Source: Shigella phage JK16
Direction: 5' to 3' (one strand)
DNA: 51,854 bases
Sequence record: MK962751
Shown here: positions 5,035 to 51,839 of the stretch, in pieces
Layout of the letters: each line of letters begins with the position of its first letter
Position numbering within the stretch: position 1 is the stretch's first letter
Notes under the pieces: generated by a model
Databases searched by the model: none
Told to the model about the DNA's origin: nothing
The model's input: the letters and a program-made list of their open reading frames with translations, nothing else
Position numbers and translations under genes: made by a program

Positions 5035-5077
5035 TAGCACTTTTTGTTAAAACGCCCGGCATTTTGTCGGGCATAAT
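5035..5077 (+). promoter_or_regulatory. motif-class promoter (motif, hairpin GCCCG..CGGGC, CATAAT)
   Basis: Same architecture as other copies. Confidence 0.45.
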
Positions 5078-5103
5078 TATTTCATCGAAACGAACGTGAG
5101 GAA

Positions 5104-8214: not shown

Positions 8215-8251
8215 GATTTTTCCTTTTTGGTTGGTTCGTTTCGATGAAACA

Positions 8252-8294
8252 AATATACCCGACACAATGTCGGGAGTTTTAACAAAAAATGCTA
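8252..8294 (-). promoter_or_regulatory. motif-class promoter, minus strand (TAGCATTTTTTGTTAAAAC, hairpin, TATATT)
   Basis: Motif variant plus -10-like hexamer 18 nt downstream on minus strand. Confidence 0.4.
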
Positions 8295-10385: not shown

Positions 10386-10437
10386 TCGTTAGCTTCTCCT
10401 TTGTGGGCCGTAAATTTTAACGGCCCAATACTACCCC

Positions 10438-10456
10438 GTTTTGTCAAAAAGTGCTA
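10438..10456 (-). promoter_or_regulatory. motif copy (TTGACA variant) followed by hairpin GGGCCGT..ACGGCCC, upstream of DUF3987 gene
   Basis: Motif variant TAGCACTTTTTGACAAAAC; no clear -10 at standard spacing. Confidence 0.35.
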
Positions 10457-11404: not shown

Positions 11405-11448
11405 GATTATGCCAGGTTTTTACACCTGGCTTTTAACAAAAAGTGCTA
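11405..11448 (-). promoter_or_regulatory. motif-class promoter, minus strand (motif, hairpin CCAGGTG..ACCTGG, ATAATC)
   Basis: -10-like hexamer 19 nt downstream of motif. Confidence 0.45.
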
Positions 11449-14795: not shown

Positions 14796-15210
14796 TGCAG
14801 GGGAGATAGTGAAACCTTCCCCTCTTGCCTCACTTTCCCGCCTGGCTGTCAGTGGTTGTTATGTTCCGTTCCCGCCTGTTCTTTTGTTGACCTTCCGCAA
14901 AATACGATAACAAAAAATAACAAACAATACCTATATAATACATTGAAAAATAAGGATTATTTATTTATATGTATCTATATATTATCTTTTGTTATCTTGG
15001 TTATTGTGGTATTTGGTGGGGGTATATAGTTTTTGTGTATCTATATGTGTGTATGGGTATGTAGGGGCATATATATCTATATGGCACTTTCCGCGAGAAA
15101 ACTTCGATAACAGCCAATGATAACATTGATTTATAAGGAAAAATAACGCCAATATTGTTATTGTGCCACCATATAAAATTGATAAAACACGCGGGAACAA
15201 GAAAAAACAG

Positions 15211-15239
15211 TTGACACATTAAATAGCATTATTGATAAT
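15211..15239 (+). promoter_or_regulatory. sigma70-type promoter, copy 1 (TTGACA, 17 nt, GATAAT)
   Basis: Consensus -35, 17 nt spacer, near-consensus -10, 30 nt upstream of ATG. Confidence 0.6.
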
Positions 15240-15268
15240 GCCGACACCTAACAACCAGGAGGTAGAAA

Positions 15269-15475
15269 ATGAGCGAGCAATCATTAACTGACACGCTGCG
15301 CCGTGCAGCTATTATGCTGGCTAATGGCGAGGAAGAGGCGATCAAGATTCCTGACGCGTATTTGCAGGTCCACATGTTCGGCAAGAAGTCGGCAAGCAAT
15401 CCGGCGGCCTACATTCGCCAGATCATGAGTCGAGTTCCAGAAGTCGCCGAGCGTTCCCGCCTGTTCTTTTGTTGA
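15269..15475 (+). pseudogene. truncated duplicate of the 5-prime part of the first early gene
   Basis: First 61 codons identical to the 15854 gene, then runs out of the repeat unit into a short unrelated tail. Confidence 0.6.
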
Positions 15476-15795
15476 CCTTCCGCAAAATACGATAACAAAA
15501 AATAACAAACAATACCTATATAATACATTGAAAAATAAGGATTATTTATTTATATGTATCTATATATTATCTTTTGTTATCTTGGTTATTGTGGTATTTG
15601 GTGGGGGTATATAGTTTTTGTGTATCTATATGTGTGTATGGGTATGTAGGGGCATATATATCTATATGGCACTTTCCGCGAGAAAACTTCGATAACAGCC
15701 AATGATAACATTGATTTATAAGGAAAAATAACGCCAATATTGTTATTGTGCCACCATATAAAATTGATAAAACACGCGGGAACAAGAAAAAACAG

Positions 15796-15824
15796 TTGAC
15801 ACATTAAATAGCATTATTGATAAT
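15796..15824 (+). promoter_or_regulatory. sigma70-type promoter, copy 2 (TTGACA, 17 nt, GATAAT)
   Basis: Identical to copy 1, upstream of intact gene. Confidence 0.6.
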
Positions 15825-15853
15825 GCCGACACCTAACAACCAGGAGGTAGAAA

Positions 15854-16318
15854 ATGAGCGAGCAATCATTAACTGACACGCTGCGCCGTGCAGCTATTAT
15901 GCTGGCTAATGGCGAGGAAGAGGCGATCAAGATTCCTGACGCGTATTTGCAGGTCCACATGTTCGGCAAGAAGTCGGCAAGCAATCCGGCGGCCTACATT
16001 CGCCAGATCATGAGTCGAGTTCCAGAAGTCGCCGAGCGGGGGCGCGTATCCGTTACCCGTGGAGTTTACGGGCCGGAAGATGAAAACTTCGGTAGCACTT
16101 TCTACGAGGTGCGCATTGTTGAAGGACGTCGCAAGGTTTACAACAAAGAGGCACTGGAAAGGGCAGTACGCCAGGCTAAGCGCAAGGTTGCAGAGGCGAT
16201 CATTGATATGTCACCAAACCTAGCAAACTATGCGCCGGAAGAGTATGAAACATTATCAAAGGCCGTCGCTGACTTTCACGCGATGATCAAAAAAACTTTC
16301 CTGGAGGATGAGCAATGA
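15854..16318 (+). CDS. hypothetical early protein
   Basis: 154 aa; AGGAGG RBS; first gene after strong promoter. Confidence 0.55.
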   Translation: MSEQSLTDTLRRAAIMLANGEEEAIKIPDAYLQVHMFGKKSASNPAAYIRQIMSRVPEVAERGRVSVTRGVYGPEDENFGSTFYEVRIVEGRRKVYNKEALERAVRQAKRKVAEAIIDMSPNLANYAPEEYETLSKAVADFHAMIKKTFLEDEQ

Positions 16319-24558: not shown

Positions 24559-25086
24559 ATGGCTAAAAACGTTGAGCCTGCTGTAAAGGCATTAAATTTC
24601 AAAGAGTTATATAATAAAACTTATGGCGATATTGTCACGCTAAACAACCGCCACAAGTACACGCCGGAACAGGTTTTTGATATGGCGATCCGCTATTTCA
24701 CTTGGGCAGAAGAGAATCACATCCAGGCGGCTGAAACTGCTTCCTTTCAGGGTGACGTGTACGAGAGCAGAGTTTACAAGCCTCGCGTTTTCACGGTTAA
24801 CGGATTCAGCTTGTATCTCGGCGTGACTGAGGCTGCCGTAAGCAAATGGCGTAAAGAGCCTGGATTCTGCGATGTGATGGAGTTTGTTGATAAAGTAATT
24901 TACGAGCAAAAATTCCAGCTTGCGGCAAATAACATGATTAATGCTGGATTTATCGGTAAAGAGATCGGCGTAGAGAAGCCAGCAACAGTGAGCGTTGAAG
25001 CTAGCGCGGCAGCTAATGCAAGCATTGACGCAGTAACTGCCGATGAGGTGAAAGAGGCTGTTATTGATATTCTGGAGCAACTTTAA
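24559..25086 (+). CDS. terminase small subunit
   Basis: Position immediately upstream of terminase large subunit; AAAGGAGG RBS; size and charge profile. Confidence 0.55.
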   Translation: MAKNVEPAVKALNFKELYNKTYGDIVTLNNRHKYTPEQVFDMAIRYFTWAEENHIQAAETASFQGDVYESRVYKPRVFTVNGFSLYLGVTEAAVSKWRKEPGFCDVMEFVDKVIYEQKFQLAANNMINAGFIGKEIGVEKPATVSVEASAAANASIDAVTADEVKEAVIDILEQL

Positions 25087-26654
25087 TGATCATATGGGAA
25101 GATTTGACGGCGGCGCAAAAGCGAGCCATTAAAGAAATCAGTGAGCATTCATTCGAAAAGATGATCAGAATCTGGTTTCAGTTATTGCAGGGGCAAAAAT
25201 TCCAGAGCAACTGGCATTTTAGCTTATTGTGCAGTGAGGTAGAGAAGATCATCAATGGAGAGTCGCAGAATGTGATTTTCAACATTACGCCAGGTAGCGG
25301 TAAGACTGAGATTTTCTCGATCCACATGTCACCCTACGCGTCATTGAAAAGTCGGAAGGTGAGAAACCTTAACCTTTCGTTTAGTGATGGACTTGTCCAG
25401 CAAAACAGCAACAGGATAAAGGAGATTATCGGTTCTCCTGAGTGGCAAGAGCTATGGCCAGGAAAACTGGCAAAGGCGAGCGCAAAAGATCTCATAGTTA
25501 CGGATGGCGGCAAGGTTAAATTGCAAGTTAACTCACGTTCTATTGGCGGACAGGTAACAGGTTTGCGTGGCGGCTATATGGACGATGGTTTTACTGGTAT
25601 GCTGGTTCTGGACGATCCAGACAAGCCGGATGATATGCTTTCTAAGGTCAAGCGTGAGGCGATCCACATGCGGTTAAAAAACACAGTGCGATCGCGTCGA
25701 ATGAAAGACACTACGCCGATTGTTATGGTGCAACAGCGACTACACGTTAATGATTCCACCTGGTTCATGCTTAATGGCGGTATGGGCGGTATTGAGTTTA
25801 AAGTTGTGAGCATTCCTGCGCTGGTTACGAAAGAATACCGCGAAACGCTTCCTGATTGGTTGAAGCCTGAATTTGATCGTGATGTGTTGTCAAGTAAGCC
25901 AGTGATGATAGATGGCGTTGCTCATTATTCATTTTGGCCTGCGAAGGAAAGCGCGGAGGAATTGCTTGCATTGCGCAATGCAGATCCTTATACGTTCGCC
26001 AGTCAGTACCAACAGCAACCCATCGCGCTTGGCGGCAACGTGTTTAAAACAGAGTGGTTCCAGTATTACGGCAGCGGCGAAAAATGCGCACTTCCTAAAC
26101 CGGATCGCTTTGAATACACATTTATTACTGGTGATACCGCGCAGAAGGCCGGAGAGCTTAACGACTATTCAGTTTTTTGTTATTGGGGGATGTATAAGAA
26201 TCGCGTTTACTTCATTGATGGCATTCGCGGAAAGTGGGAAGCGCCGGATCTTGAATTAAATTTTATTGCCTTCGTTAATCAGTGCTGGAAGCGCAATAAG
26301 GAGTGTGGCAGCTTGCGACGTATCCACATTGAGGATAAGGCCAGCGGCACGGGTTTGATTCAGGGGGCCAAAAAGAAGATCCCGATTGATATAAATCCCG
26401 TTCAGCGAAGCAATGACAAGGTAACGCGAGCAATGGACGCCGCGCCAGTAATGAGGGCCGGACGTGTGGCACTGCCAGAAAGTCATCCCATGTTACCTGA
26501 GATACTGGCAGAGGTTGCAGCGTTCACTTTTGACGATTCTCATCCCCATGATGATATTGTCGATAATATAGTTGATGCTGTTAACGTCGAAATGAACTTG
26601 GCTGATGATCCGGTAGCAAGGATGAAAAAGCTGGCTGGTCTACGCAATAAATAG
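25086..26654 (+). CDS. terminase large subunit
   Basis: ATPase P-loop-like ITPGSGKTE, acidic Walker B-like MLVLDDPD, C-terminal nuclease-like acidic residues; 522 aa. Confidence 0.8.
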   Translation: MIIWEDLTAAQKRAIKEISEHSFEKMIRIWFQLLQGQKFQSNWHFSLLCSEVEKIINGESQNVIFNITPGSGKTEIFSIHMSPYASLKSRKVRNLNLSFSDGLVQQNSNRIKEIIGSPEWQELWPGKLAKASAKDLIVTDGGKVKLQVNSRSIGGQVTGLRGGYMDDGFTGMLVLDDPDKPDDMLSKVKREAIHMRLKNTVRSRRMKDTTPIVMVQQRLHVNDSTWFMLNGGMGGIEFKVVSIPALVTKEYRETLPDWLKPEFDRDVLSSKPVMIDGVAHYSFWPAKESAEELLALRNADPYTFASQYQQQPIALGGNVFKTEWFQYYGSGEKCALPKPDRFEYTFITGDTAQKAGELNDYSVFCYWGMYKNRVYFIDGIRGKWEAPDLELNFIAFVNQCWKRNKECGSLRRIHIEDKASGTGLIQGAKKKIPIDINPVQRSNDKVTRAMDAAPVMRAGRVALPESHPMLPEILAEVAAFTFDDSHPHDDIVDNIVDAVNVEMNLADDPVARMKKLAGLRNK

Positions 26655-26680
26655 CACTAATTGCTAAAAAGTTATATAAT
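26652..26680 (+). promoter_or_regulatory. motif variant (TAGCACTAATTGCTAAAAA) with TATAAT only 4 nt downstream
   Basis: Variant copy supplying TAG stop of terL; spacing atypical. Confidence 0.3.
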
Positions 26681-26683
26681 CAA

Positions 26684-26708
26684 GGCTGGATTTTTCCAGC
26701 CTTTTTTA
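26684..26708 (+). terminator. rho-independent terminator or attenuator between terL and portal
   Basis: Stem GGCTGGA/TCCAGCC followed by T6. Confidence 0.55.
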
Positions 26709-26724
26709 TTATGGAGATTTGACG

Positions 26725-29907: not shown

Positions 29908-30417
29908 ATGGCTAAAATTGGAGCAAGTTATTTTGACACTATGGCGCGTGCGCTTCCTGGTCAGGTATCCGATACTTCGGCATATAACATCGACGGCGCT
30001 TGTGTTCTTGACAAGGAAGATGGCATCCCAATCCTGGTTGGCGTGGCTGTTAAGCTAAAAGGCGTTGACTCAATGGGTAATAAGCTGATCGACTCCATTT
30101 CCGCTGGCGGTGACGTTCCTTATGGCGTTGGCATCCGTTCTCACTTTCAAACAACGGCTGATAATGGTCGAATGGTTTATGAGGTTGGCGGCGGAATCAA
30201 CGTTATGACAGAGGGCCGCGTTTGGATGATTGGAGATGATTCAGATAAGGCCAAAAAGCCATCGTATCGTGAGCCTGTAAAAATTGATGAAAACACTGGC
30301 AAGGTAAAAAGTGGTGGCGCTATCAATACCAACTGGATTTACACGGGAGATAAAACCACATTTGGAACTGGCGAAGATGTGTTGACTTTGTTTGAAGTTC
30401 AGGTCTTCCCAAGCTAA
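29908..30417 (+). CDS. capsid-associated protein (decoration-like), paralog of next gene
   Basis: Shares YNIDG..C, INV.T.G.VW and WI.TGD motifs with 30468 gene. Confidence 0.45.
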   Translation: MAKIGASYFDTMARALPGQVSDTSAYNIDGACVLDKEDGIPILVGVAVKLKGVDSMGNKLIDSISAGGDVPYGVGIRSHFQTTADNGRMVYEVGGGINVMTEGRVWMIGDDSDKAKKPSYREPVKIDENTGKVKSGGAINTNWIYTGDKTTFGTGEDVLTLFEVQVFPS

Positions 30418-30421
30418 AATT

Positions 30422-30447
30422 AAGGCGCTCGCTTGAGCGCCTTTTTT
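30422..30447 (+). terminator. rho-independent terminator or attenuator
   Basis: Stem AAGGCGCTC/GAGCGCCTT followed by T-run. Confidence 0.55.
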
Positions 30448-30467
30448 ATTATGTAAGGAGAAATGAA

Positions 30468-31250
30468 ATGGCTAAAGATTATTCATCTGTTATGGGTCTT
30501 TCTTGCCCTGGTTGTTTGGTTGACTCTACTCGCTACAATATTGATGGAACTGGCGTTTGTGGTTCTGAGTCGATTATTGCTGGTAAGGTTGTTTTCTTCA
30601 AAGAGAGAGTAGAAGGTTATAGCATATTTGTTGATCATAAAGAGCATGATGCGGTTGTTGCTGGCGTCGCGCTAAGGAGCAACATAACAACGACAGTTAA
30701 CGAGGAAGACGGGTATTCAGACTACAAGGAAGGAGACGCCATCAACATTTTGACAAGAGGTGTTGTATGGTGTGTAACTCAAACAATTGAATCTCCTCCT
30801 GAACATGGCGATCTTGTTTATGTTAACAATGATGGCTTTGTAGCAAAGAGTGACGGGGATGAAATCGTCGATGGCTGGATTTTTACTGGTGACTTCTACA
30901 AGTTTGATGAAACAATAAACATAGTAGGAGTAAGGATAACGCCGCTTCATCATAGAAAATACCTTCTTACTGGTGCGATAATTGAGGCTGAAAATGGCTA
31001 CATAGAGGGAACAGAGACGATTAATAACGTTCAATTAAAGGTAACGGTTGTTCCTACTTGGGCTGATGACAAAACGGGTCAGTGGACAATTACAAACGAG
31101 CAAGATCCAAAGGTTGCCAGCGTTAGCCGTACAGGTCTTGTTGTTCCTACTGGTGTAGGAGGCAGAGTTAACGTCAACTGGACTGCTAATGATGGTTCTG
31201 GAGTTGCTGACCAGTTTGATATTGTATTTAAGAAAACCGCTGGCGAATAA
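30468..31250 (+). CDS. head decoration protein with C-terminal Ig-like domain
   Basis: N-terminal paralogy to 29908 gene; C-terminal Ig-like segment (VTVVPTWADDKTGQWTI...VNVNWTANDGSG). Confidence 0.5.
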   Translation: MAKDYSSVMGLSCPGCLVDSTRYNIDGTGVCGSESIIAGKVVFFKERVEGYSIFVDHKEHDAVVAGVALRSNITTTVNEEDGYSDYKEGDAINILTRGVVWCVTQTIESPPEHGDLVYVNNDGFVAKSDGDEIVDGWIFTGDFYKFDETINIVGVRITPLHHRKYLLTGAIIEAENGYIEGTETINNVQLKVTVVPTWADDKTGQWTITNEQDPKVASVSRTGLVVPTGVGGRVNVNWTANDGSGVADQFDIVFKKTAGE

Positions 31251-31274
31251 CTGATAGCATAAAAAAACATTGCA

Positions 31275-31293
31275 CGTTTAACAAAAAGTGCTA
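31275..31293 (-). promoter_or_regulatory. motif copy in antisense orientation within the structural module
   Basis: Reverse-complement motif between decoration and capsid genes; no -10 at standard spacing. Confidence 0.3.
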
Positions 31294-31300
31294 TCATCTA

Positions 31301-31327
31301 GGCCGTTACATTTAACGGCCTTTTTTA
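31301..31327 (+). terminator. rho-independent terminator or attenuator immediately upstream of major capsid gene
   Basis: Stem GGCCGTTA/TAACGGCC followed by T6, then GGAGG RBS. Confidence 0.5.
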
Positions 31328-31340
31328 TGGAGGAAGCAAA

Positions 31341-32312
31341 ATGGCTAAAAAATACGATGAATTAGATGCTACCATTGTAGCAAATCATTTACAGGTTCAG
31401 GGCGTTAAGGGTGATGCTTCTGATATGGGTATTTGGACCGCTCAAGAGCTACACAAGATCCGTTCAACGGCATACGAGAAAGAGTATCCGGCAGGTTCCG
31501 CACTTCGCGTATTCCCTGTAACAAACGAGCTTTCTGATACTGATAAGACTTTTGAGTATCAGACTTTTGATAAGGTTGGCTACGCGAAAATTATCGCCGA
31601 CTACACCGACGATCTGCCGACCGTGGACGCGCTGATGACTTCTGAATTTGGCAAGGTGTTCCGCCTGGGTAACGCTTTTCTGATCTCCATTGATGAGATT
31701 AAAGCAGGTCAGCGAACTGGCAAGAGCCTGTCAACTCGCAAGGCTAACGCTGCGCAAAATGCGCATGATCAGTTGATTAACTTCCTGGTGTTCAAAGGTT
31801 CCAAGCCTCATAAGATCGTTTCCGTTTTCGATCACCCTAACCTTACGAAAATTGTTTCTAAAGGATGGATGAGCCAGGATGGAAACACCAAGTTCCCTGA
31901 TGTGGCAAGCGATGAACTGGAGGCTGCAATCGAGACTATCGAGGAAGTAACCAAAGGTCAGCACCGCGCGACTAACATCCTGATCCCGCCGTCCATGCGT
32001 AAAGTCTTGACGGTTCGAATGGAAAATACCACTGAAAGTTATCTTGAATACTTCCAGAAGCAAAACGGCGGCATCACTATCGACTCTATCGCAGAGCTTG
32101 AGGATATTGACGGCAAAGGTACGAAAGGTTGCTTGGTTTACGAAAAAGATCCAATGAACATGAGCATTGAGATTCCAGAAGCGTTTAACATGCTTCCGGC
32201 GCAGCCAAAAGACCTTCATTTCAAGGTTCCTTGCACTTCCAAGTGTACTGGCCTTACTATTTACCGTCCGTTTACGATGGTGCTTATTACTGGCTTGAAA
32301 AAGTCAGCTTAA
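31341..32312 (+). CDS. major capsid protein
   Basis: 323 aa, strong RBS, followed by strong terminator; position in head module. Confidence 0.7.
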   Translation: MAKKYDELDATIVANHLQVQGVKGDASDMGIWTAQELHKIRSTAYEKEYPAGSALRVFPVTNELSDTDKTFEYQTFDKVGYAKIIADYTDDLPTVDALMTSEFGKVFRLGNAFLISIDEIKAGQRTGKSLSTRKANAAQNAHDQLINFLVFKGSKPHKIVSVFDHPNLTKIVSKGWMSQDGNTKFPDVASDELEAAIETIEEVTKGQHRATNILIPPSMRKVLTVRMENTTESYLEYFQKQNGGITIDSIAELEDIDGKGTKGCLVYEKDPMNMSIEIPEAFNMLPAQPKDLHFKVPCTSKCTGLTIYRPFTMVLITGLKKSA

Positions 32313-32323
32313 TTAGATAACAT

Positions 32324-32351
32324 GGGGAGCCTTAAGGGTTCCCCTTTTTTT
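32324..32351 (+). terminator. rho-independent terminator after major capsid gene
   Basis: Stem GGGGAGCC/GGGTTCCCC followed by T7. Confidence 0.7.
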
Positions 32352-32370
32352 ATTTACGGAGTACACAAAA

Positions 32371-32637
32371 ATGAGCAAAACTTTAAAACTTAAAGTAACT
32401 GGCGTTTGCATGATTATTATGGACGGTAAGCGTTATCACCCTGGTGATGAGATTGAAATTGAATCTGATCGCATTAATGATTCCGCAATTGAATACCTGA
32501 TCGCTCGCGGCGATGTGGAAGTTAAAGACAATTCCGAAATTAACGAGCAAATCAAGGAGAAAGCGGAGAAGAAGCGCAAAAAAGATCCTACCGAGGGCAA
32601 GAGCCGCAAAGAGCTAGAGGATGGCGGCGAATATTAA
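32371..32637 (+). CDS. hypothetical structural protein
   Basis: 88 aa, Lys/Glu-rich C-terminus. Confidence 0.4.
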
Positions 32638-32683
32638 TAATTGGGGCGCTTATGCGCCCCTTGTCATATCTGGAGAAAGCAAA

Positions 32684-33103
32684 ATGGTAGATGAATTTTA
32701 CACAGACGCTGAAATCGTTCAGCAAATCGTAAAGTTGGCCCCACCAATGCAGCAGGTTGATCCCGATTTAATTGTGGCATGGATTGAGCTTGCTAAAGAA
32801 TTTGTTTGCAAAAAACGGTTTAAAAACTCATACCCGAAAGCGGTTGCGCTTTACACTCTTCACCTTATGACCTTAGACGGGGCAATGAAACAGGAAGGTG
32901 AAAGCGTAGAAAGCTATTCCCGCCGCGTTGCATCGTTCACTCTGACTGGTGAGTTTAGTCAGACGTTTGATCGAATTTCTTCCGATACAAGCGGAAAGCA
33001 GATCCGACAAACGCCGTGGGGCAAAATGTACGAAGTGTTAAACCGTAAGCACGGTGGCGGCTTTGGACTTGTAACTGGATTGCGCCGGAGATGTTGCCGA
33101 TGA
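32684..33103 (+). CDS. head-tail connector protein (putative)
   Basis: Position; GGAGAAAGC RBS. Confidence 0.4.
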
Positions 33104-33474
33104 ATTACAATGAGATTGCAAGAATGGCTACTGCTGGGATTAACTTTTTCAGCGACGCTAACGGTATGTTTAAGTGCATCACGCAGCAGGGAGGGGTTGA
33201 GATTATCGGCGGAGAGGAAGTTGCCAAGCCTGAGATTTCAGTGATGATAAAGGGGCTTGTTAGATCTCCGAGGACTAGAGAGGTTGACGGTGAAACGATC
33301 CGAGTAACCGACAAGTTGGGGGTATTCACCAATGAAACTGAGATCAAAAATGGTTATCAGATTGAAATTGATGGCGATCGTTATGTTGTCGTTGAAGCAA
33401 GACCAGTCAGACAGACTAACATCACGGCAGCTTATCGTCCGATATTAAGGAGGATTGCAGTGCATGGCGGATAA
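33091..33474 (+). CDS. head-tail joining protein (putative)
   Basis: Position; overlapping start. Confidence 0.4.
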
Positions 33475-33907
33475 TTATAAGATCAGGGAATTTCACGGTG
33501 ATATAAGCAGGTGGATTGATTCAGTAAGCAGCGGCCTTGTTGATTGCGTTGAAATGTTCGCGACAAACGTCCACGAGGATCTTGTAAAGCGTTCGCCAGT
33601 TGATACGGGCCGATATAAAGCTAACTGGCAGGTAACAGCAAACAAGCCGCCGCTATATGCTCTCAATCAATACGATCGCGATGGTAGTAAAACCATTGCA
33701 GAAGGCAAGCGAGCAATATATGCAATCATGCGGGGCGGTGGAGCGGTGCGGTCAATCTATTTTTCAAACATGCTTATTTACGCCAATGCGCTTGAATACG
33801 GGCATTCAAAACAAGCGCCGTCCGGCGTGCTGGGAATCGTGGCGGTAAAGCTGCGATCCTATATGACTAAGGCAATAAAGGATTCGAGGGCAAAAAATGC
33901 ACTATGA
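33464..33907 (+). CDS. neck / tail completion protein (putative)
   Basis: Position; AAGGAGG RBS. Confidence 0.4.
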   Translation: MADNYKIREFHGDISRWIDSVSSGLVDCVEMFATNVHEDLVKRSPVDTGRYKANWQVTANKPPLYALNQYDRDGSKTIAEGKRAIYAIMRGGGAVRSIYFSNMLIYANALEYGHSKQAPSGVLGIVAVKLRSYMTKAIKDSRAKNAL

Positions 33908-34298
33908 TTTAATGTTAGCGGCAAGAAAGGCGCTGGCGGAGGAATATGAATCACGATTCAAGATCGCCTATGAAAACGTTGATTTTGTTCCGCCTGGTGA
34001 TGGTTCGATGTGGTTAAAATTTGACTACATGGAAGCCGACACAGATCGCATATCTCTTGATAGAAAATGCGTTTCTTATATCGGATTGGTTCAGGTTGGA
34101 ATTGTTATGCCTCCTGGCGGCGGCACTGATAAAGCGCGTTTGCTGGCTAAAGAGATTGCGAGATTTTTCTATGATGGTAGAATGTTTGAAACTGGCTATA
34201 TTAGCGAGGGGGCAAACGTCCACGCATTACTAAAAAGTGAAACAGGTTGGTTCTTACCGATCCGTTTCAGTGTTAGGCTTGACACAAAGGAGGAATAA
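33897..34298 (+). CDS. tail terminator-like protein (putative)
   Basis: Position before major tail gene. Confidence 0.4.
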   Translation: MHYDLMLAARKALAEEYESRFKIAYENVDFVPPGDGSMWLKFDYMEADTDRISLDRKCVSYIGLVQVGIVMPPGGGTDKARLLAKEIARFFYDGRMFETGYISEGANVHALLKSETGWFLPIRFSVRLDTKEE

Positions 34299-34300
34299 TC

Positions 34301-34963
34301 ATGCACTTGCCTAATGGTTCTCAAATTTTCATCGGCGTTAATATGGGTGATCCGATTCAGGCTACGGCTATTTCAAATGCTAATGATCCTGTTTTTACGA
34401 CTGCAAACACTCAAAGCATCAAAAAAGGCGCTTATGTTCTTATTGAAACATCTTCTTGGGGCAAACTTGTTAGTCGAGTGCTTCGAGTTAAGGAAGTATC
34501 AGGTAATGTAAGTGTTACTCTTGAGGGCGTTAGCACCAAAGATACAAACGTATTTCCAGAAGGAAAGAACACAGCAACTTTCCGAGAAGTGAAATCTTGG
34601 GTAGAGGTTCCTTGCGTGCAGGATCTTGCGCAGGACGGCGGCGAGCAACAGTATTACACTTATCAGTGTTTGGCTGATGACCAGGAGCAGCAGTTACCGA
34701 CCTACAAGAGCGCGGTTTCTCTTACCTACACTTTCGCTCATGAATATGATAACCCGATTTATCCGATCTTGCGCGAGGCTGAGGAATCCGGCGACGTAAC
34801 CGCTTTGCGTATGTACGTGCCGAAAGCTAAAGAGATGCGTTGCTGGGCTGGCGTATTGTCTTTTAATGACATTCCGCAAACAACTATGAACGAAATGGAA
34901 ACTGTTTCCCTTTCTGTATCTCTGAAAGGCCGATTCACGTTCTTACCTTCCGACGTTAAGTAA
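34301..34963 (+). CDS. major tail protein
   Basis: 220 aa, followed by strong terminator, upstream of G/GT chaperone. Confidence 0.65.
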   Translation: MHLPNGSQIFIGVNMGDPIQATAISNANDPVFTTANTQSIKKGAYVLIETSSWGKLVSRVLRVKEVSGNVSVTLEGVSTKDTNVFPEGKNTATFREVKSWVEVPCVQDLAQDGGEQQYYTYQCLADDQEQQLPTYKSAVSLTYTFAHEYDNPIYPILREAEESGDVTALRMYVPKAKEMRCWAGVLSFNDIPQTTMNEMETVSLSVSLKGRFTFLPSDVK

Positions 34964-34967
34964 AACA

Positions 34968-34991
34968 AGGGGCGTTGCGCCCCTTTTTTCA
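34968..34991 (+). terminator. rho-independent terminator after major tail gene
   Basis: Stem AAGGGGCG/CGCCCCTT followed by T6. Confidence 0.7.
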
Positions 34992-35029
34992 TTCCTGTAA
35001 AATCAATCTATCAAATAAATTAATTCCAC

Positions 35030-35048
35030 TTTTAACAAAAAGTGCTAT
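35030..35048 (-). promoter_or_regulatory. motif copy in antisense orientation upstream of G chaperone gene
   Basis: Reverse-complement motif abutting the AAGGAG RBS. Confidence 0.3.
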
Positions 35049-35062
35049 AAGGAGATCTTAAG

Positions 35063-35380
35063 ATGGCAAAGATGAAACTAACGTTAGGCCCACTGCCTGA
35101 TTTTAAGCTGCCTGTTTCTTTCGTGCTTCCAAATGGTGATGAGCAAGTTATTATTTTTACCGTGCGCCACAAGAAGGCAAGCGAAATTCACGAACGATAC
35201 ACGGCAGAAAAGCCGATGAGCGACGTAGAAATGATCACCTTCCTTGCTTCCGGTTGGGATCTGGAAGATGAATTTAACGAGGAAAACGTTGCTAAATTGC
35301 TGGATTATTACCCGTCTGCGTCATTATCGCTGACTGGTCATTATATGAAAGCGCTTGCGGGGCAGCGGGTAAAAAACTAA
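35063..35380 (+). CDS. tail assembly chaperone G
   Basis: 105 aa, immediately upstream of tape measure; ends at slippery site. Confidence 0.65.
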   Translation: MAKMKLTLGPLPDFKLPVSFVLPNGDEQVIIFTVRHKKASEIHERYTAEKPMSDVEMITFLASGWDLEDEFNEENVAKLLDYYPSASLSLTGHYMKALAGQRVKN

Positions 35381-35697
35381 AGCGGGCGGTTTACCTGTTT
35401 TACCTCAAGCCGCCAACTGACGCACAATTAGAGGCCGTCGGCCTATCCCGTTCAGACTACGAAGGGGAGGAGCCGCCGGAGGTAATTTTTGATGAATCAA
35501 TGTTTCAATCTTGGGATCTGTTTTGCGCTATGCAGACGCAATGGAGATCGACTAGCGGCAGTGTGTATGGGTTCGACTATAACGTTTTGCCTATGCTTTT
35601 TGACATTTACAAGATTGAGGATCGGGAGATGGCGCTAAATGATTTGCGCATCATGGAACAAAAGGCGCTAGAAATGATTCATTCAAACAAAACATAA
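35063..35697 (+). CDS. tail assembly chaperone GT, made by -1 frameshift at 35371-35377
   Basis: Slippery heptamer A_AAA_AAC immediately before G stop; -1 frame open from 35296 through 35697. Confidence 0.55.
35371..35377 (+). other. programmed -1 ribosomal frameshift slippery site (AAAAAAC)
   Basis: X_XXY_YYZ heptamer in G frame just before TAA. Confidence 0.6.
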
Positions 35698-35718
35698 GCG
35701 CCGCGAGGCGCTTTTTTA
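35696..35718 (+). terminator. rho-independent terminator or attenuator after GT
   Basis: Stem AAGCGCC/GGCGCTT followed by T6. Confidence 0.55.
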
Positions 35719-40908: not shown

Positions 40909-40934
40909 ATACCCGCCTTGCGCGGGTTTTTTTG
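40909..40934 (+). terminator. rho-independent terminator or attenuator before J
   Basis: Stem ACCCGC/GCGGGT followed by T7. Confidence 0.55.
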
Positions 40935-40982
40935 TGCATTTATAATGTGCAAACCAAGAAACAGCACAAAAGGTTAAAAGTC

Positions 40983-43900
40983 ATGGCTAAATATATGATA
41001 AGCGGCAGTAAGGGCGGAAGCAAAAAGCCATACGTGCCAAAAGAGATGGAAGATAACCTGATCTCGATAAACAAGATTAAAGTTTTGCTGGCTGTATCTG
41101 ATGGCGAGTGCGATCCAGATTTCACGTTGCGCGATCTTTATCTTGATGATGTTCCGGTTATTGCCAGCGATGGCACTGTTAACTACGAGGGAGTTACGGC
41201 TGAATATCGACCAGGTACGCAGACGCAAGATTACATCCAGGGTTTTACTGACACATCAAGTGAGGTGACAGTTGCAAGAGATATTACCGGAGACAATCCT
41301 TATGTTATTTCTGTTACAAATAAAAATCTATCTGCGGTAAGAATAAAGATCCTGATGCCAGTAGGCATTAAAACAGAGGATAACGGCGATCTTGTTGGCG
41401 TAAGGGTTGAGTATGCCGTAGATATGGCTGTTGATGGCGGTTCTTATAGCGAGGTTATGAGAGATGTAATTGACGGCAAGACAAGATCAGGATACGACCG
41501 CAGCAGAAGGATTGATCTTCCTAAGTTTGATGAGCGCGTTTTAATCCGAGTAAAGCGACTGACTCCAGACAGCACATCTTCAAAGGTGACTGATAAAATC
41601 AAGCTGCAAAGTTACGCTGAGGTTGTTGATGCAAAATTCCGCTATCCTCTGACTGGACTTGTATTCGTAGAATTTGACAGCGAATTGTTTCCTACGCAAA
41701 TCCCTAACATTTCTATAAAAAAGAAATGGAAGATTATTAATGTGCCAAGCAACTATGATCCAATATCAAGAGAATATCACGGGTCATGGGATGGGACTTT
41801 TAAAAAAGCGTGGTCAAATAATCCTGCTTGGGTTCTTTATGATCTGGTGACAAATCAGCGTTATGGACTTGATCAGCGAGAGTTAGGAATACAGATCGAC
41901 AAGTGGAGCTTATACGAAGCGGGCGTTTACTGCGATCAGAAAGTTCCAGACGGTAAAGGCGGCACTGAGCCTCGCTACCTATGCGATGTGGTGATTCAGA
42001 ATCAAGTTGAGGCTTATCAGCTAATCCGTGACATTTGCTCAATCTTTCGCGGAATGAGTTTTTGGAATGGTGAGAGCTTATCAATCGTGATTGATAAGCC
42101 GCGCGATCCATCATACGTGTTTACTAATGAAAACGTCATCAACGGTGATTTTCAGTACACAAACGCAAGCGAAAAAAGCATGTACACGCAGTGTAACGTG
42201 ACGTTTGACGACGAACAAAACATGTATCAGCAGGACGTAGAGGGGGTTTTTGATACTGAGGCTGCATTACGATTTGGATACAATCCAACAAGCATTACAG
42301 CGATCGGTTGTACACGCAGGAGCGAAGCGAATCGTCGCGGTCGGTGGGTTTTGAAAACAAACCTTAGAAGCACTACTGTAAACTTTGCTACCGGACTAGA
42401 GGGGATGATTCCATCAATAGGTGATGTGATTGCTATCGCTGATAATTTTCAGAGCAGCAACCTAACGTTAAACCTATCGGGCCGAGTGATGGAAGTTTCA
42501 GGATTGCAGGTTTTCGTTCCGTTTAAGGTTGATGCTCGTCCTGGTGATTTTATTATCATCAACAAGCCGGACGGAAAGCCAGTTAAGCGCACGATCTCAA
42601 AGGTTAGCGCAGACGGAAAAACCATTGAGTTAAATATTGGATTTGGTTTTGATGTTAAGCCTGATACTGTTTTTGCGATTGACCGTACTGACCTTGCGTT
42701 GCAGCAATACGTTGTGACAACTATCAGCAAGGGTGATGACGAAAACGAGTTTACCTATTCAATCACTGCTGTAGAGTACGATCCGAACAAATACGACGAG
42801 ATTGATTATGGAGTAAACATTGATGACAGACCGACTTCAATTGTTCAGCCTGACGTGATGGCAGCGCCTGAGAACGTTAAGATCTCATCTTATTCTCGCG
42901 TCGTGCAGGGTGTTAGCGTTGAGACTATGGTTGTTTCATGGGATAAGGTTCCTTACGCATCGCTTTATGAAATGCAGTGGCGAAAAGGTGATGGTAACTG
43001 GCTGAATACGCCGCAGACCGCTAACAAAGAGATAGAGGTAGAAGGGATTTACTCTGGCAACTACCAAGTAAGGGTGAGATCCGTTTCTGCAAGCGGTAAC
43101 GCTTCCCCGTGGTCAAAGATTGCAACCGCCACTCTGACAGGTAAAGTTGGAGAGCCAGGAGCGCCGATTAATCTTACGGCTTCTGATAATGAAGTTTTTG
43201 GCATTCGTGTCAAATGGGGTATGCCGGAAGGATCAGGCGATACGGCTTACATTGAGCTTCACCAATCGCCAGACGGAACGGTTGAAAACTCAAGTCTGCT
43301 TACGCTGATTCCATATCCTCAATATGAGTATTGGCATAGCACGTTACCAGCGGGGCAAGTTGTATGGTATAGAATCCGCAGCGTTGACAGAATAGGCAAC
43401 GTTTCAAGCTGGACTGACTTTGTTCGCGGCATGGCGTCAGATGACGTTGAATCTGTTTTGGGCGACATTCTGGACAAGATTTTTGATACAGAAGCTGGTC
43501 AAGAAATCAAAGAGAACGCCATAGACAGTGCCAATAAAATCAAAGACCAGGCGCAATCAATCATACAGAACGCGTTGGCAAATGATGCAGATGTGAAGTG
43601 GACGCGAGTGCAAAACGGAAAGCGCAAGGCTGAATATGGTCATGCTCTTGAGCTTATCGCCAATGAAACAGAAGCGCGCGTAACTCAAATCGAAGAATTA
43701 AGGGCATCAATTGATGGCGAGATAACATCAAGCATCAAGACAGTGCAGGAGGCAATTGCCACTGAATCAGAGACGCGAGCGACTCAAATTCAGCAGCTTG
43801 ATTCTAAATTCACAAAAGAAATCGACGGCGTGCGCAAGGATACTTCTGCAAGCATTAGCGATGTAAGGCAGACAATCACTAACGAGTCAGAAGCGCGCGC

Positions 43901-45783: not shown

Positions 45784-45825
45784 ACTATACACGATCTTGG
45801 GCATCGCGTTTAGCAAAAAGTGCTA
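45784..45825 (-). promoter_or_regulatory. motif-class promoter, minus strand (TAGCACTTTTTGCTAAACG, 17 nt, TATAGT)
   Basis: No minus-strand gene upstream; drives lipoprotein operon. Confidence 0.45.
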
Positions 45826-51765: not shown

Positions 51766-51784
51766 ATAGCACTTTTTGCTAATG
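51766..51784 (+). promoter_or_regulatory. motif copy (TAGCACTTTTTGCTAATGA) at window end
   Basis: Plus-orientation copy with no plus-strand gene downstream in the window. Confidence 0.3.
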
Positions 51785-51812
51785 ACAATGCAGATAATAG
51801 CATTTTCAAGTG

Positions 51813-51839
51813 CAAAAAAAAACCCCGCATAAGCGGGGC
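51813..51839 (-). terminator. rho-independent terminator (minus strand) upstream of tail fibre gene
   Basis: Stem CCCCGC/GCGGGG followed by T9 on minus strand. Confidence 0.6.

Follow-up and report, generated by a model that had tools for sequence, protein, structure and literature searches.

The window, i.e., the whole stretch of 51,854 nucleotides that was analysed, comes from a T1-like coliphage (Drexlerviridae, Warwickvirus). An exact 18-nt sequence, TTTAACAAAAAGTGCTAT, lies on its plus strand at 31277-31294 (copy A), ahead of the major capsid gene, and at 35031-35048 (copy B), ahead of the tail assembly chaperone gene. Both copies are inverted relative to the capsid and tail genes, which lie on the plus strand; the initial annotation had recognized this orientation, with coordinates displaced by 1-2 nt.

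The DR repeat and its inverted copies

The repeat motif (DR) in the window is a published 21-nt repeat, aaATAGCACnnnTTGnTAAAA, described for phage TLS by Kropinski et al. (2024, PMC11447400) and also noted in T1, Rtp and Rogue1. According to that report, the repeats point the way transcription runs and lie about 76 nt 5' of start codons, and their function was left open (stoperator, enhancer site or UP-like). It also places TLS DR7 on the negative strand (15044-15024), beside terminator T35 and just ahead of the capsid gene.

The window contains 18 copies of the DR, with the consensus ATAGCACnnnTTGnTAAA, and 17 matches with up to three mismatches, against 0.18 expected by chance. Fourteen of the 18 read ATAGCAC→ along their own genes and are followed, after N19-21, by a -10 hexamer; this ordinary design (DR, N19-21, -10, conserved leader) is found in the window, T1 and KLPN1. 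At these 14 promoters, which have no -35, the DR core is centred at about -42, a classic position for an activator. The core is quasi-palindromic (TAGCA-N5-TGYTA); the palindrome is imperfect, and its chance probability is ~0.1 by a rough estimate that allows for the choice of centre.

The position and orientation of copies A and B are kept from the Tempevirinae to phage T1. Both match at 18/18 positions and are conserved across subfamilies, and the suggestion that they might be decayed copies was therefore rejected. A third inverted DR (51766-51783), also conserved, lies ahead of the minus-strand tail-fibre gene. A degenerate DR occurs within the leader of the J gene.

All start sites given below were predicted from -10 geometry, sigma-70 promoters usually starting ~6-9 nt past the -10. 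A literature search found neither mapped 5' ends of transcripts nor any data on binding or expression for any T1-like phage.

The capsid junction

The features at site A are as follows.

31261-31267, plus strand: A-tract (7 A) just 5' of the -35, like a proximal UP element, read from the sequence
31270-31275, plus strand: -35 (TTGCAC) of the predicted forward capsid promoter, assigned from conservation in variants
31277-31294, minus strand: DR copy A, opposite in orientation to the capsid operon and reading ATAGCACTTTTTGTTAAA on the minus strand, an exact match
31289-31297, plus strand: extended -10 (TGcTATCAT) of the predicted forward capsid promoter, with TGCTAT coming from the inverted DR
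31300-31326, plus strand: intrinsic-terminator-like hairpin (9-bp stem, 4-nt loop) and T-run
31329-32312, plus strand: RBS GGAGG (31329-31333) and major capsid gene (31341-32312, ATG at 31341)

The order of elements on the plus strand (A-tract, TTGCAC, 16 nt, TGcTATCAT) is of the sigma-70 type. An inverted DR is present 59-80 nt 5' of the capsid gene in most of 79 related loci and in T1 and TLS, across a range of capsid protein identity from 54 to 98%. An A-run occurs at the matching place in all relatives, and in all 45 unique variants a TTGNNN hexamer lies 16 nt (17 in three of them) 5' of the -10. In T1 and the Webervirus-like group this hexamer is TTGACG or TTGACC. The TGn is likewise kept in 45/45 variants, and so is the final T of the -10 hexamer (TATCAT, TATATT, TATTCT or TATTAT); by our own count, the equivalent position is T in just 2/12 other DR copies in the window. 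Drift in the Webervirus-like group has brought two to three mismatches into the DR and left the promoter elements intact. The same design recurs at the portal junction. The TTGCAC of the window agrees with the -35 consensus at only three of six positions, and a promoter scan of the window did not list the forward promoter at site A. On the minus strand at copy A no -10 was found: the hexamer found at N20 reads TATCAG, and most relatives lack a T at its last position. Read forward, the inverted DR at site A makes up both the spacer and the extended -10 of a predicted host sigma-70 promoter for the capsid gene.

The terminator-like hairpin that had been noticed between copy A and the capsid RBS is real. 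Its stem (31300-31308/31313-31321) is followed by a T-run extending to 31326; its predicted stability is -13.5 kcal/mol (z = -5.1), and compensatory changes occur in three of six aligned pairs. Of the earlier label, an attenuator-like terminator, the terminator part holds and the attenuator part is less likely. In 23 of 25 hairpin-bearing variants it begins 0-3 nt past the forward -10 (5 nt in L018 and L038), so that the predicted start of the capsid promoter (~31303-31306) falls within its 5' arm; for RNAs starting 7-8 nt past the -10, the stability drops from between -11 and -15 kcal/mol to about -1.5 to -7. A hairpin so placed should stop upstream transcripts rather than attenuate the capsid promoter. 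In the Webervirus-like group, which is distant from T1, the terminator lies 5' of the capsid promoter, showing that the two elements are separable. The hairpin more likely terminates transcripts arriving from upstream, i.e., from the decoration/cement-protein gene (30468-31250), while those from the capsid promoter would begin in its 5' arm and escape termination.

The tail junction

At site B, the junction between the major tail gene and the tail assembly chaperone gene, the features are the following.

34958-34998, minus strand: predicted short antisense RNA (~40 nt), placed by promoter geometry and ending at the minus-strand terminator, with the tail UUGUUUUAC
34967-34989, both strands: bidirectional terminator hairpin 3' of the major tail gene, detected on both strands and conserved in relatives
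34975-35003, plus strand: predicted forward sigma-70-type promoter, TTGCGC (34975-34980), 17 nt, TAAAAT (34998-35003), predicted start ~35010
35005-35013, minus strand: extended -10 (TGaTAGATT) of the predicted antisense DR-type promoter, predicted start ~34998
35031-35048, minus strand: DR copy B, inverted, an exact match; upstream element of the predicted antisense promoter
35049-35380, plus strand: RBS AAGGAG (35049-35054) and tail assembly chaperone gene (35063-35380; Pfam Phage_TAC_4, E = 2.6e-31)

The loop and 3' arm of the terminator contain the -35 of the forward promoter, which serves the tail-assembly-chaperone and tape-measure genes; the same cassette recurs at 40918-40946. Copy B occupies about +21 to +38 of the predicted forward transcript, adjoining the RBS. 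Exactly 20 nt past copy B on the minus strand lies TAGATT (35010→35005), preceded by TGa. Among 18 unique variants this antisense -10 is always TAnnnT, in 11 different hexamers, with the TG present in 15. The forward promoter is conserved as well (TTGCnn in 17/18, TA[A/G/C]AAT in 18/18), and the gap between the opposing -10 hexamers is 1 nt in all 18. Copy B is conserved in the group with capsid identity of at least 77% and in T1, where the arrangement is that of the window. In KLPN1 (Webervirus), the forward tail promoter is present without a DR and the capsid promoter has a degenerate one; thus the DR is dispensable for the late promoters themselves.

These observations support a complete minus-strand DR-type promoter driven by copy B and conserved from Warwickvirus to T1. 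The initial annotation had found no -10 at the usual spacing from either copy and had offered antisense promoters as one explanation. The absence of a -10 holds for copy A, where all conserved signals face the capsid gene, and fails for copy B, where comparative evidence supports the antisense promoter. From this promoter, polymerase would run in reverse into the bidirectional terminator. The antisense and forward promoters would require the same DNA for their open complexes, and the DR would lie in the path of the forward transcript. The predicted antisense RNA folds with -15.6 kcal/mol (z = -3.3); its terminator has a poor U-tail in relatives, and read-through into antisense of the major tail gene is therefore possible. 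No target or coding capacity was evident for an antisense transcript at site B.

The architecture of these junctions and its conservation are direct observations.

A possible dual role for the DR, and its precedents

On balance we think it probable, although far from certain, that both copies are functional, conserved Drexlerviridae DRs, inverted within compact terminator-promoter junctions before heavily used late genes, and that they act as follows. Start sites, promoter activity, a DR-binding factor and the sign of its regulation are what we infer. At late and regulator-gene promoters the DR has its centre at about -28 at the portal promoter, -19 at the capsid promoter, +13 at the tail fibre, +24 at the regulator gene and +30 at the tail chaperone. 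A protein bound at these positions, or a polymerase facing backward, would hinder the promoter. A single DR-binding factor could therefore turn on early and middle genes and at the same time restrain late promoters or delay them. Action as activator sites at a distance, another of the roles first considered, is not what the positions indicate, since both copies lie within or beside core promoter elements. A candidate for the factor is the conserved Cro-like helix-turn-helix protein encoded at 986-1462 and found in 828 phage records, whose own leader would cross a DR; in the window a DR lies 12 nt from the start of this protein's gene, an arrangement shared by T1. A difficulty is that, with a repressor expressed from a consensus promoter, the late promoters would need some means of relief, for which titration by replicating DNA is our guess. 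If correct, the inverted DRs suggest a possible way for T1-like phages to time their late genes.

Host polymerase alone might instead read the DR, as an UP-like element or a substitute for the -35, with the inverted copies co-opted and no temporal switch, an account that we consider unlikely. At site A the reverse complement would happen to give a TGnTAT recruited as a -10, and at site B the antisense promoter would be a decoy or insulator, competing with the forward promoter or colliding with read-through. An UP-like enhancer was suggested by Kropinski et al. (PMC11447400), DR promoters front small early genes, some of which must fire before much phage protein exists, and at site A of the Webervirus-like group just the bases that matter to the promoter are kept. 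The DR is also invariant between genera with different hosts (E. coli and Klebsiella phages), as expected of a conserved host polymerase, although this fits a conserved phage protein as well. However, T1 and the Tempevirinae keep the whole 18-mer at both sites, including spacer bases that polymerase is not known to read. Moreover, DR-type promoters lack a -35 at 17 nt, the TTGnTA inside the DR, at 22 nt from the -10, is beyond the reach of sigma-70, and the A/T tracts lie ~8 nt nearer the start than in the UP-element consensus.

The remaining alternatives place the function in RNA. It is rather improbable that the antisense RNA at site B, small or longer, is itself functional and tunes tail-gene expression by pairing with the major tail mRNA at its 3' end or with the initial ~12 nt of the chaperone transcript. 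Its promoter is conserved, its predicted stem-loop is stable, and the weak terminator tails of relatives would permit read-through; but beyond the two promoters and the terminator the transcribed segment has no conservation of its own, the sole minus-strand ORF (34759-34992) loses its ATG in relatives, no Rfam family was found (best match STnc50, 33.8 bits against a threshold of 55, terminator-driven), and site A has no antisense promoter, so that this reading cannot account for both copies. We give equally little credence to an attenuator, in which the full 31300-31326 hairpin would be transcribed as a leader terminator, from the capsid promoter or one upstream, and a factor would set read-through into the capsid gene. 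A good, conserved terminator does stand directly before the capsid RBS, and since upstream-gene transcripts meet it, it must set the read-through that reaches the capsid gene; yet its distance from the -10 in 23/25 variants implies that at least 3 to 5 stem bases would be absent from capsid-promoter transcripts, the Webervirus-like arrangement separates the elements, and neither an alternative antiterminator pairing nor a leader peptide nor a riboswitch was found (Trp_leader scored 21.9 bits, the threshold being 41). Very improbable indeed is a role of the inverted DR, as UUUAACAAAAAGUGCUAU before the RBS, as a translational enhancer or protein-binding site on late mRNAs. The sequence is A/U-rich and ends 0-2 nt from the RBS at three genes of the window (tail chaperone, tail fibre and regulator), but the distance is 10-11 nt in some relatives and T1, the leader folds no better than shuffled sequence (z = -0.5), the DR at site A lies 5' of the predicted start, and the 14 ordinary copies yield the complementary RNA, making a shared RNA function unlikely.

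Among the closest known systems are the TLS repeats, which have the same sequence and intergenic location (21 copies in TLS against 18 in the window) and of which DR7 is the direct counterpart of site A; the discussion in that report does not extend to the inverted copies, the constant N19-21 interval before the -10, the inverted-copy capsid promoter or the two interlocked promoters of the tail junction (PMC11447400). The late region of T1 has been described in terms of "transcriptons" (Roberts et al., 2004, as cited in PMC11447400), and the window similarly has late-gene modules bounded by Rho-independent terminators and equipped with their own sigma-70 promoters. It goes beyond transcriptons, as summarized there, in the predicted start within the terminator 5' arm at the portal and capsid junctions, the -35 set within the loop of the terminator at the tail-chaperone and J-gene junctions, and the DRs in the junctions. 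Like the stoperators of mycobacteriophage L5, the DRs are many short asymmetric sites in short intergenic spaces, some in transcribed leaders. However, stoperators act in a single orientation, as targets of a temperate phage's prophage repressor, whereas most DRs lie at -42 of a promoter, outside transcribed DNA, and leaders hold both orientations.

Warman and colleagues reportedly described, in 2021, bidirectional promoters with -10 elements on opposite strands. The window likewise has opposite-strand -10s that overlap or abut, at site B, with divergent predicted starts 12 bp apart, and at the helicase/regulator junction (1512-1518), where these are 18 bp apart. Here, though, one partner is DR-type, at site B it faces only a terminator and no gene, and the arrangement is no by-product of A/T symmetry but a conserved one. 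At OR, lambda cI represses PR and activates PRM, the latter from about -42, and phi29 p4 is likewise a position-dependent dual regulator. The DR would resemble their sites in lying at about -42 of promoters without a -35 and elsewhere over or downstream of core elements, and the candidate Cro-like protein, with a site in its own leader, might similarly be autoregulated. Unlike lambda, the phage here is virulent, and the polarity would be early and middle genes on, late genes damped.

The DR repeat family and its inverted copies

Over the region 30400-35400, the window shares 99% identity with Escherichia phage JLBYU19 and 95-98% with phages tunus, tuinn, SLUR29 and FritzSarasin. These relatives are virulent T1-like siphoviruses (Drexlerviridae, Tempevirinae, Warwickvirus), and the window is also a Warwickvirus. 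Its terminase, portal, head and tail genes lie on the + strand at 24.5-44.6 kb. The features considered in most detail are as follows.

30468-31250, decoration/cement-protein gene, upstream of site A
31277-31294, site A, inverted copy of the repeat DR upstream of the major capsid gene
31300-31326, terminator-like stem-loop and T-run between site A and the capsid RBS
31341-32312, + strand, major capsid gene
35031-35048, site B, inverted copy of DR upstream of the tail assembly chaperone gene
35063-35380, + strand, tail assembly chaperone gene, just before the tape-measure gene

DR was described by Kropinski et al. 2024 (PMC11447400) as a 21-nt direct repeat, aaATAGCACnnnTTGnTAAAA, occurring at 21 places in phage TLS, with similar repeats noted in T1, Rtp and Rogue1. 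The repeats were said to follow the direction of transcription, about 76 nt before start codons, and their function was left open, i.e., stoperator-like, an enhancer-binding site or UP-like (PMC11447400). The consensus ATAGCACnnnTTGnTAAA has 18 copies in the window, where 17 matches to TTTAACAAAAAGTGCTAT with up to three mismatches were found versus 0.18 expected by chance; T1 and KLPN1 carry the same DR set. Fourteen copies, read from ATAGCAC onward, share the direction of the local genes. All 14 have a -10-like hexamer 19-21 nt past TAAA (CATAAT, TATATT, TAAAAT, TATAGT, TACATT, TATAAT, TAAAGT or TATTAT), after which come a leader often starting CATCGAAACGAAC, an RBS and ATG. Many DR promoters are followed by a conserved stretch covering the first ~13 transcribed nucleotides (CATCGAAACGAAC and variants), which T1 and KLPN1 share; examples are at 5080-5095 and on the minus strand near 8230, 11385 and 14600. 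It could be an initial sequence common to these transcripts, an RNA signal or a second operator.

Three copies are inverted relative to their genes, i.e., sites A and B and a third at 51766-51783. As the initial annotation had stated, both flagged copies oppose the capsid and tail genes: TTTAACAAAAAGTGCTAT is found exactly on the + strand at 31277-31294 and 35031-35048. Each site matches ATAGCACTTTTTGTTAAA at 18/18 positions, the two 21-mers being TGATAGCACTTTTTGTTAAAC and TTATAGCACTTTTTGTTAAAA. That they arose by chance, or are decayed copies as had been suggested, is excluded by these exact matches and by deep conservation. They depart from the published rule both in orientation and in their distance before ATG, which is 47 nt (A) and 15 nt (B). 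The orientation rule is not complete even for TLS, whose DR7 is inverted as well: its coordinates on the negative strand, 15044-15024, place it directly next to terminator T35 (15049-15069), shortly ahead of the capsid gene of TLS at 15087 (PMC11447400, Table S1). DR7 is the counterpart of site A, and PMC11447400 does not discuss it. Sites A and B belong to a known but unexplained repeat family, for which a literature search covering the DR sequence and T1-like transcriptomes or start-site maps found only the TLS paper. The inverted use of DR, its fixed geometry and the interlocked promoter pair at the tail junction are absent from the searched literature.

The capsid junction at site A

For site A, the comparison drew on 79 IMG/VR loci surrounding homologues of the capsid gene (54-98% protein identity), together with T1, TLS and KLPN1. 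An inverted DR lies 59-80 nt before the capsid start in most of these loci. Every conserved signal flanking it faces forward, in the order A-run, TTGNNN, 16 nt (17 in three variants), TGnTAT(C/A/T)(A/T/C)T. The window has TTGCAC, 16 nt and TGcTATCAT, a predicted sigma-70 extended -10 promoter in which the spacer bases of DR are AACAAAAA. This promoter was missed by the consensus promoter scan of the tool because TTGCAC scores only 3/6. The TTG, the TG, and the TA and final T of the -10 are kept in 45/45 unique variants, i.e., unique sequence versions of the junction among related phages; a T occupies the position equivalent to that final T in 2/12 ordinary DR copies in the window. The -35 is TTGCAC in the window, TTGAAC in TLS-like phages, TTGACG in T1, and TTGACC or TTGACG in a Webervirus-like group that includes KLPN1. 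Because DR has drifted in that group to ATATCACGAATCGTTAAG, with three mismatches, and the -35 and extended -10 are intact, the predicted forward promoter is the deepest conserved feature of the site.

On the minus strand of site A there is no TAnnnT hexamer 19-21 nt past the end of TAAA, the arrangement of a DR-type promoter. The hexamer at N20 is TATCAG, and its last position is G, C, A or T among relatives. The earlier statement that the inverted copies lack a -10 at the usual spacing holds at this site, and sequence comparison does not support the antisense promoter that had been offered as one reading. An antisense ORF at 31079-31297, within the decoration/cement-protein gene, was treated as spurious.

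The terminator-like hairpin that had been noted before the capsid gene is well founded, the stem-loop at 31300-31321 plus T-run having a folding energy of -13.5 kcal/mol (z = -5.1). With a 9-bp stem containing five G-C pairs, a 4-nt loop and TTTTTT, the element at 31300-31326 is a predicted intrinsic terminator; its U-tract is shorter in several relatives. Most variants have an energy between -11 and -15 kcal/mol, and the stem shows paired changes between lineages (GGCCGTTA/TAACGGCC, GGCTGTTA/TAACAGCC, GGGCTGT/ACAGCCC and GCCGTT/GACGGC), with double changes in 3/6 aligned pairs according to RNAalifold. In the Webervirus-like group, a terminator precedes the capsid promoter, which has no hairpin after it.

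The stem begins 0-3 nt past the -10 in 23/25 unique hairpin-bearing variants, so that, from geometry only, the predicted capsid start falls 3-8 nt inside it; in the other two variants (L018 and L038) the predicted stem begins 5 nt past the -10. The usual sigma-70 start is 7-8 nt past the -10. RNA starting there retains only about -1.5 to -7 kcal/mol of the hairpin, and the truncated capsid leader folds no better than shuffled sequence (z = -1.3). From this geometry we conclude that the hairpin probably ends transcripts arriving from the decoration/cement-protein gene (30468-31250); those from the capsid promoter would begin inside the 5' arm and so escape termination. An attenuator, as the hairpin had initially been described, would need a transcript starting upstream of 31300, and the position of the -10 relative to the hairpin disfavours such a start. 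When attenuator parts were sought at site A, nothing was found between the -10 and the hairpin and no Rfam family reached threshold; nor is there a competing antiterminator, leader peptide or ligand-binding domain.

Predicted interlocked promoters at the tail junction and related junctions

For site B, the comparison comprised 18 unique variants, i.e., the window, T1 and loci with capsid identity of at least 77%. The minus strand of the window reads DR, exactly 20 nt and then TAGATT (35010 to 35005) with TGa in front, the arrangement of a DR-type promoter. Since the hexamer at N20 is TAnnnT in 18/18 variants (11 different hexamers) and TG is present at -15/-14 in 15/18, with the sequence of the 20-nt spacer free to vary, the pattern is, at the level of sequence, that of a functional -10 whose distance is under selection. 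Thus, the claim of a missing -10 fails at site B, where an antisense promoter is indeed predicted.

The + strand carries TA(A/G/C)AAT (34998-35003), 1 bp from the minus-strand -10, in 18/18 variants, and TTGCnn exactly 17 nt upstream of this -10 in 17/18. The TTGCnn sits in the loop and 3' arm of the terminator ending the major tail gene, and KLPN1 keeps the forward tail promoter without any DR. The predicted starts, at ~35010 (+) and ~34998 (-), are divergent and ~12 bp apart, and the upstream element of each promoter is predicted to lie inside the DNA transcribed from the other. Open complexes of the two promoters would compete for the same ~13 bp. The predicted antisense RNA is ~40 nt long and ends in the minus-strand reading of the terminator, the tail of which is weak in relatives. 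Site B may possibly function through this RNA, but no target for it is visible.

Several other readings of this junction were rejected. A forward promoter using the TAT of DR would have a -35 that is not conserved and a hexamer whose last base is not T, and its start would fall past the conserved RBS. Copies resembling site B in Webervirus-like loci (~+3140 to +3800 from the capsid start) are false positives, having 2-3 mismatches and lying inside the major tail coding sequence. An RNA hairpin formed by DR in the tail-chaperone leader was no better than shuffled sequence, and its flanking CAC is not conserved. The start of an antisense ORF at 34759-34992 is not kept in relatives, and the ORF was treated as spurious. 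A match to Rfam STnc50 at 34956-35040 scored 33.8 bits against a threshold of 55, every Rfam match being below threshold; we took it to reflect only the A-rich leader and terminator, because STnc40 is described as a hypothetical chromosomal mutT attenuator.

The portal junction (26651-26716) repeats the capsid design, with a direct DR at 26651-26668 that overlaps the terL stop, 6 nt, TATAAT (26675-26680), 1 nt, a terminator at 26682-26703 and then the RBS; the predicted start is again within the 5' arm of the terminator. TAGCAC-17-TATAAT is conserved in relatives, and therefore the 5' part of DR may act as the portal -35. At the tail-fibre junction (51766-51838, minus strand), the third inverted DR (51766-51783) is flanked by an extended -10, TGcTATTAT (51799-51794), and the RBS of the tail-fibre gene (ATG at 51748), with a terminator upstream at 51838-51823. 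Relatives conserve this arrangement, as does T1 (at 34902). The terminator-promoter cassette of site B recurs before the J tail gene (region 40911-40985), where TTGCGC (40918-40923) is in the terminator loop and TATAAT is at 40941-40946. The J leader holds a degenerate direct DR-like sequence, ACAGCACAAAAGGTTAAAA, at 40961-40979, with equivalents at 25021 in T1 and in TLS DR8.

At the ordinary DR promoters 5052-5075, 8255-8277, 10400-10440 and 11410-11431, a G+C-rich hairpin holds the 20-nt spacer or the -10. The TAAAAT at 10440 is in a hairpin loop, and the -10 at T1 35978 is in the loop of an annotated terminator. Overlap of terminator and promoter seems to be a general habit of these genomes. 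Strong terminator-like hairpins also occur in the structural operon at 30422-30443, 32324-32344 and 35696-35713, with an RBS directly after each and no promoter-like sequence; these are possibly partial terminators setting head/tail protein ratios.

Elsewhere in the window there is a perfect 585-bp tandem duplication (14867-15451 and 15452-16036, region 14867-16038), which could be real or an assembly artefact of terminal redundancy. It holds a consensus early promoter (TTGACA 15796-15801, 17 nt, GATAAT 15819-15824; copy at 15211-15239) and the 5' part of gene 15854-16318. The gene after the DR at 45809 (45758-45700, minus strand) starts MKKLIAVIATVAALTGCA, a lipoprotein signal, and in T1 a Cor superinfection-exclusion gene is annotated nearby; together these suggest a Cor-like protein expressed from a DR promoter.

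A candidate regulator and the timing of transcription

Gene 986-1462 lies on the minus strand, divergently from the helicase gene, and its 158-aa product has a predicted Cro-like helix-turn-helix (Pfam YdaS/P22_Cro below the curated cut-off; PDB Cro chains, E = 6e-4; PHROG 2856). The protein occurs in 828 phage records, and it is annotated as a transcriptional regulator in TLS, T1 and KLPN1. The helicase promoter has the DR at 1474-1491 as its upstream element; this DR also lies in the leader of 986-1462, 12 nt before its ATG, and the two -10s overlap on opposite strands (regulator TATAAT 1518-1513, helicase TATTAT 1512-1517). VLCpiS13c, a distant non-Drexlerviridae phage, lacks DR and has only a short homologue of the regulator, so that a comparison of regulator with DR in it is uninformative. 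The phage of the window also encodes a 70-aa AbrB-like early protein.

The DR core is a near-palindrome, TAGCA-N5-TG(C/T)TA. At the 14 ordinary copies (N19-21), its centre is at ~-42 from the predicted start, and no TTGACA-like hexamer is found at 17 nt. Class II activator sites are centred near -41.5, with a good -10 and no -35, and the ordinary DR promoters, judged from predicted starts, have this geometry. At sigma-70-type promoters DR is placed differently.

Predicted position of the DR centre at sigma-70-type promoters
Portal: ~-28
Capsid: ~-19
Tail fibre: ~+13
J: ~+17 (degenerate copy)
Regulator gene: ~+24
Tail chaperone: ~+30

Because of the precedents of class II activators and of lambda cI at OR, we infer that these positions form the pattern expected of one dimeric protein that would activate from -42 and hinder elsewhere. 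It is conceivable, although we consider it rather unlikely, that DR is the operator of the Cro-like regulator (T1 gp23 family, 986-1462) and that this single protein runs the whole temporal programme. If so, the regulator would activate ~14 promoters without a -35 from position -42, and would regulate itself via the DR that its leader contains. It would hold back the late sigma-70-type promoters (portal, capsid, tail chaperone, J and tail fibre) from sites that overlap each promoter or lie just downstream. At the tail junction it would, in addition, switch on the backward promoter, a competitor for the shared -10 region. Titration of the regulator by replicating genomes would bring relief.

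T1 belongs to the seven classic T phages, and Drexlerviridae turn up very often in collections of coliphages and Klebsiella phages. They encode neither a polymerase nor a sigma factor, and the searched literature contains no mechanism separating their early and late transcription; DR, the sole candidate for a regulatory sequence, had no function assigned to it on publication (PMC11447400). Three results bear on it, i.e., the fixed DR geometry at ordinary promoters, the conservation of inverted copies in late promoters and the interlocked pair. The finding is real and more structured than the initial annotation saw, and the arrangement is built from ordinary promoter and terminator parts with predicted functional roles. 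A vague motif becomes a precise short list of three predicted starts, one candidate protein and defined point mutations, making the timing of late transcription in T1-like phages directly testable, and the published claim that all repeats follow the direction of transcription is corrected. The compact terminator-promoter overlaps could serve as insulating parts for phage engineering. Were the reading of DR as a regulator site wrong, the copies would still be promoter and terminator elements of the ordinary kind, in a phage family that is well known.

The host polymerase alone may instead read DR, as in the UP-like idea, site A then being a co-opted sequence and site B a competing decoy promoter. 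In favour of this, Klebsiella phages carry DR unchanged, and some of its promoters have to be active early. DR before RBSs might also act at the RNA level, but the case is weak, given that RBS distances vary and there is no structure signal.

A T7-like single-subunit polymerase promoter was considered, since TTTAAC...GCTATAAGGAGA resembles CTATAGGGAGA. It was ruled out because no polymerase gene is annotated in the relatives examined and because most copies would then point away from genes; the published TLS analysis reports neither a polymerase nor a sigma gene (PMC11447400). A sigma-54 promoter (TGGCAC-N5-TTGC) was rejected from the sequence, DR having AG rather than GG and N3 rather than N5 and being followed by a sigma-70-type -10. 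None of the host-factor sites considered (IHF, Fis, CRP and OmpR) was a convincing fit. L5-type stoperators have a single orientation, lie in transcribed intergenic DNA and are bound by the prophage repressor. Unlike these, DR has leader copies in both orientations (inverted at 35031 and 51766, direct DR-like at 40961), most of its copies lie upstream of promoters, and the phage that carries it is virulent and T1-like.
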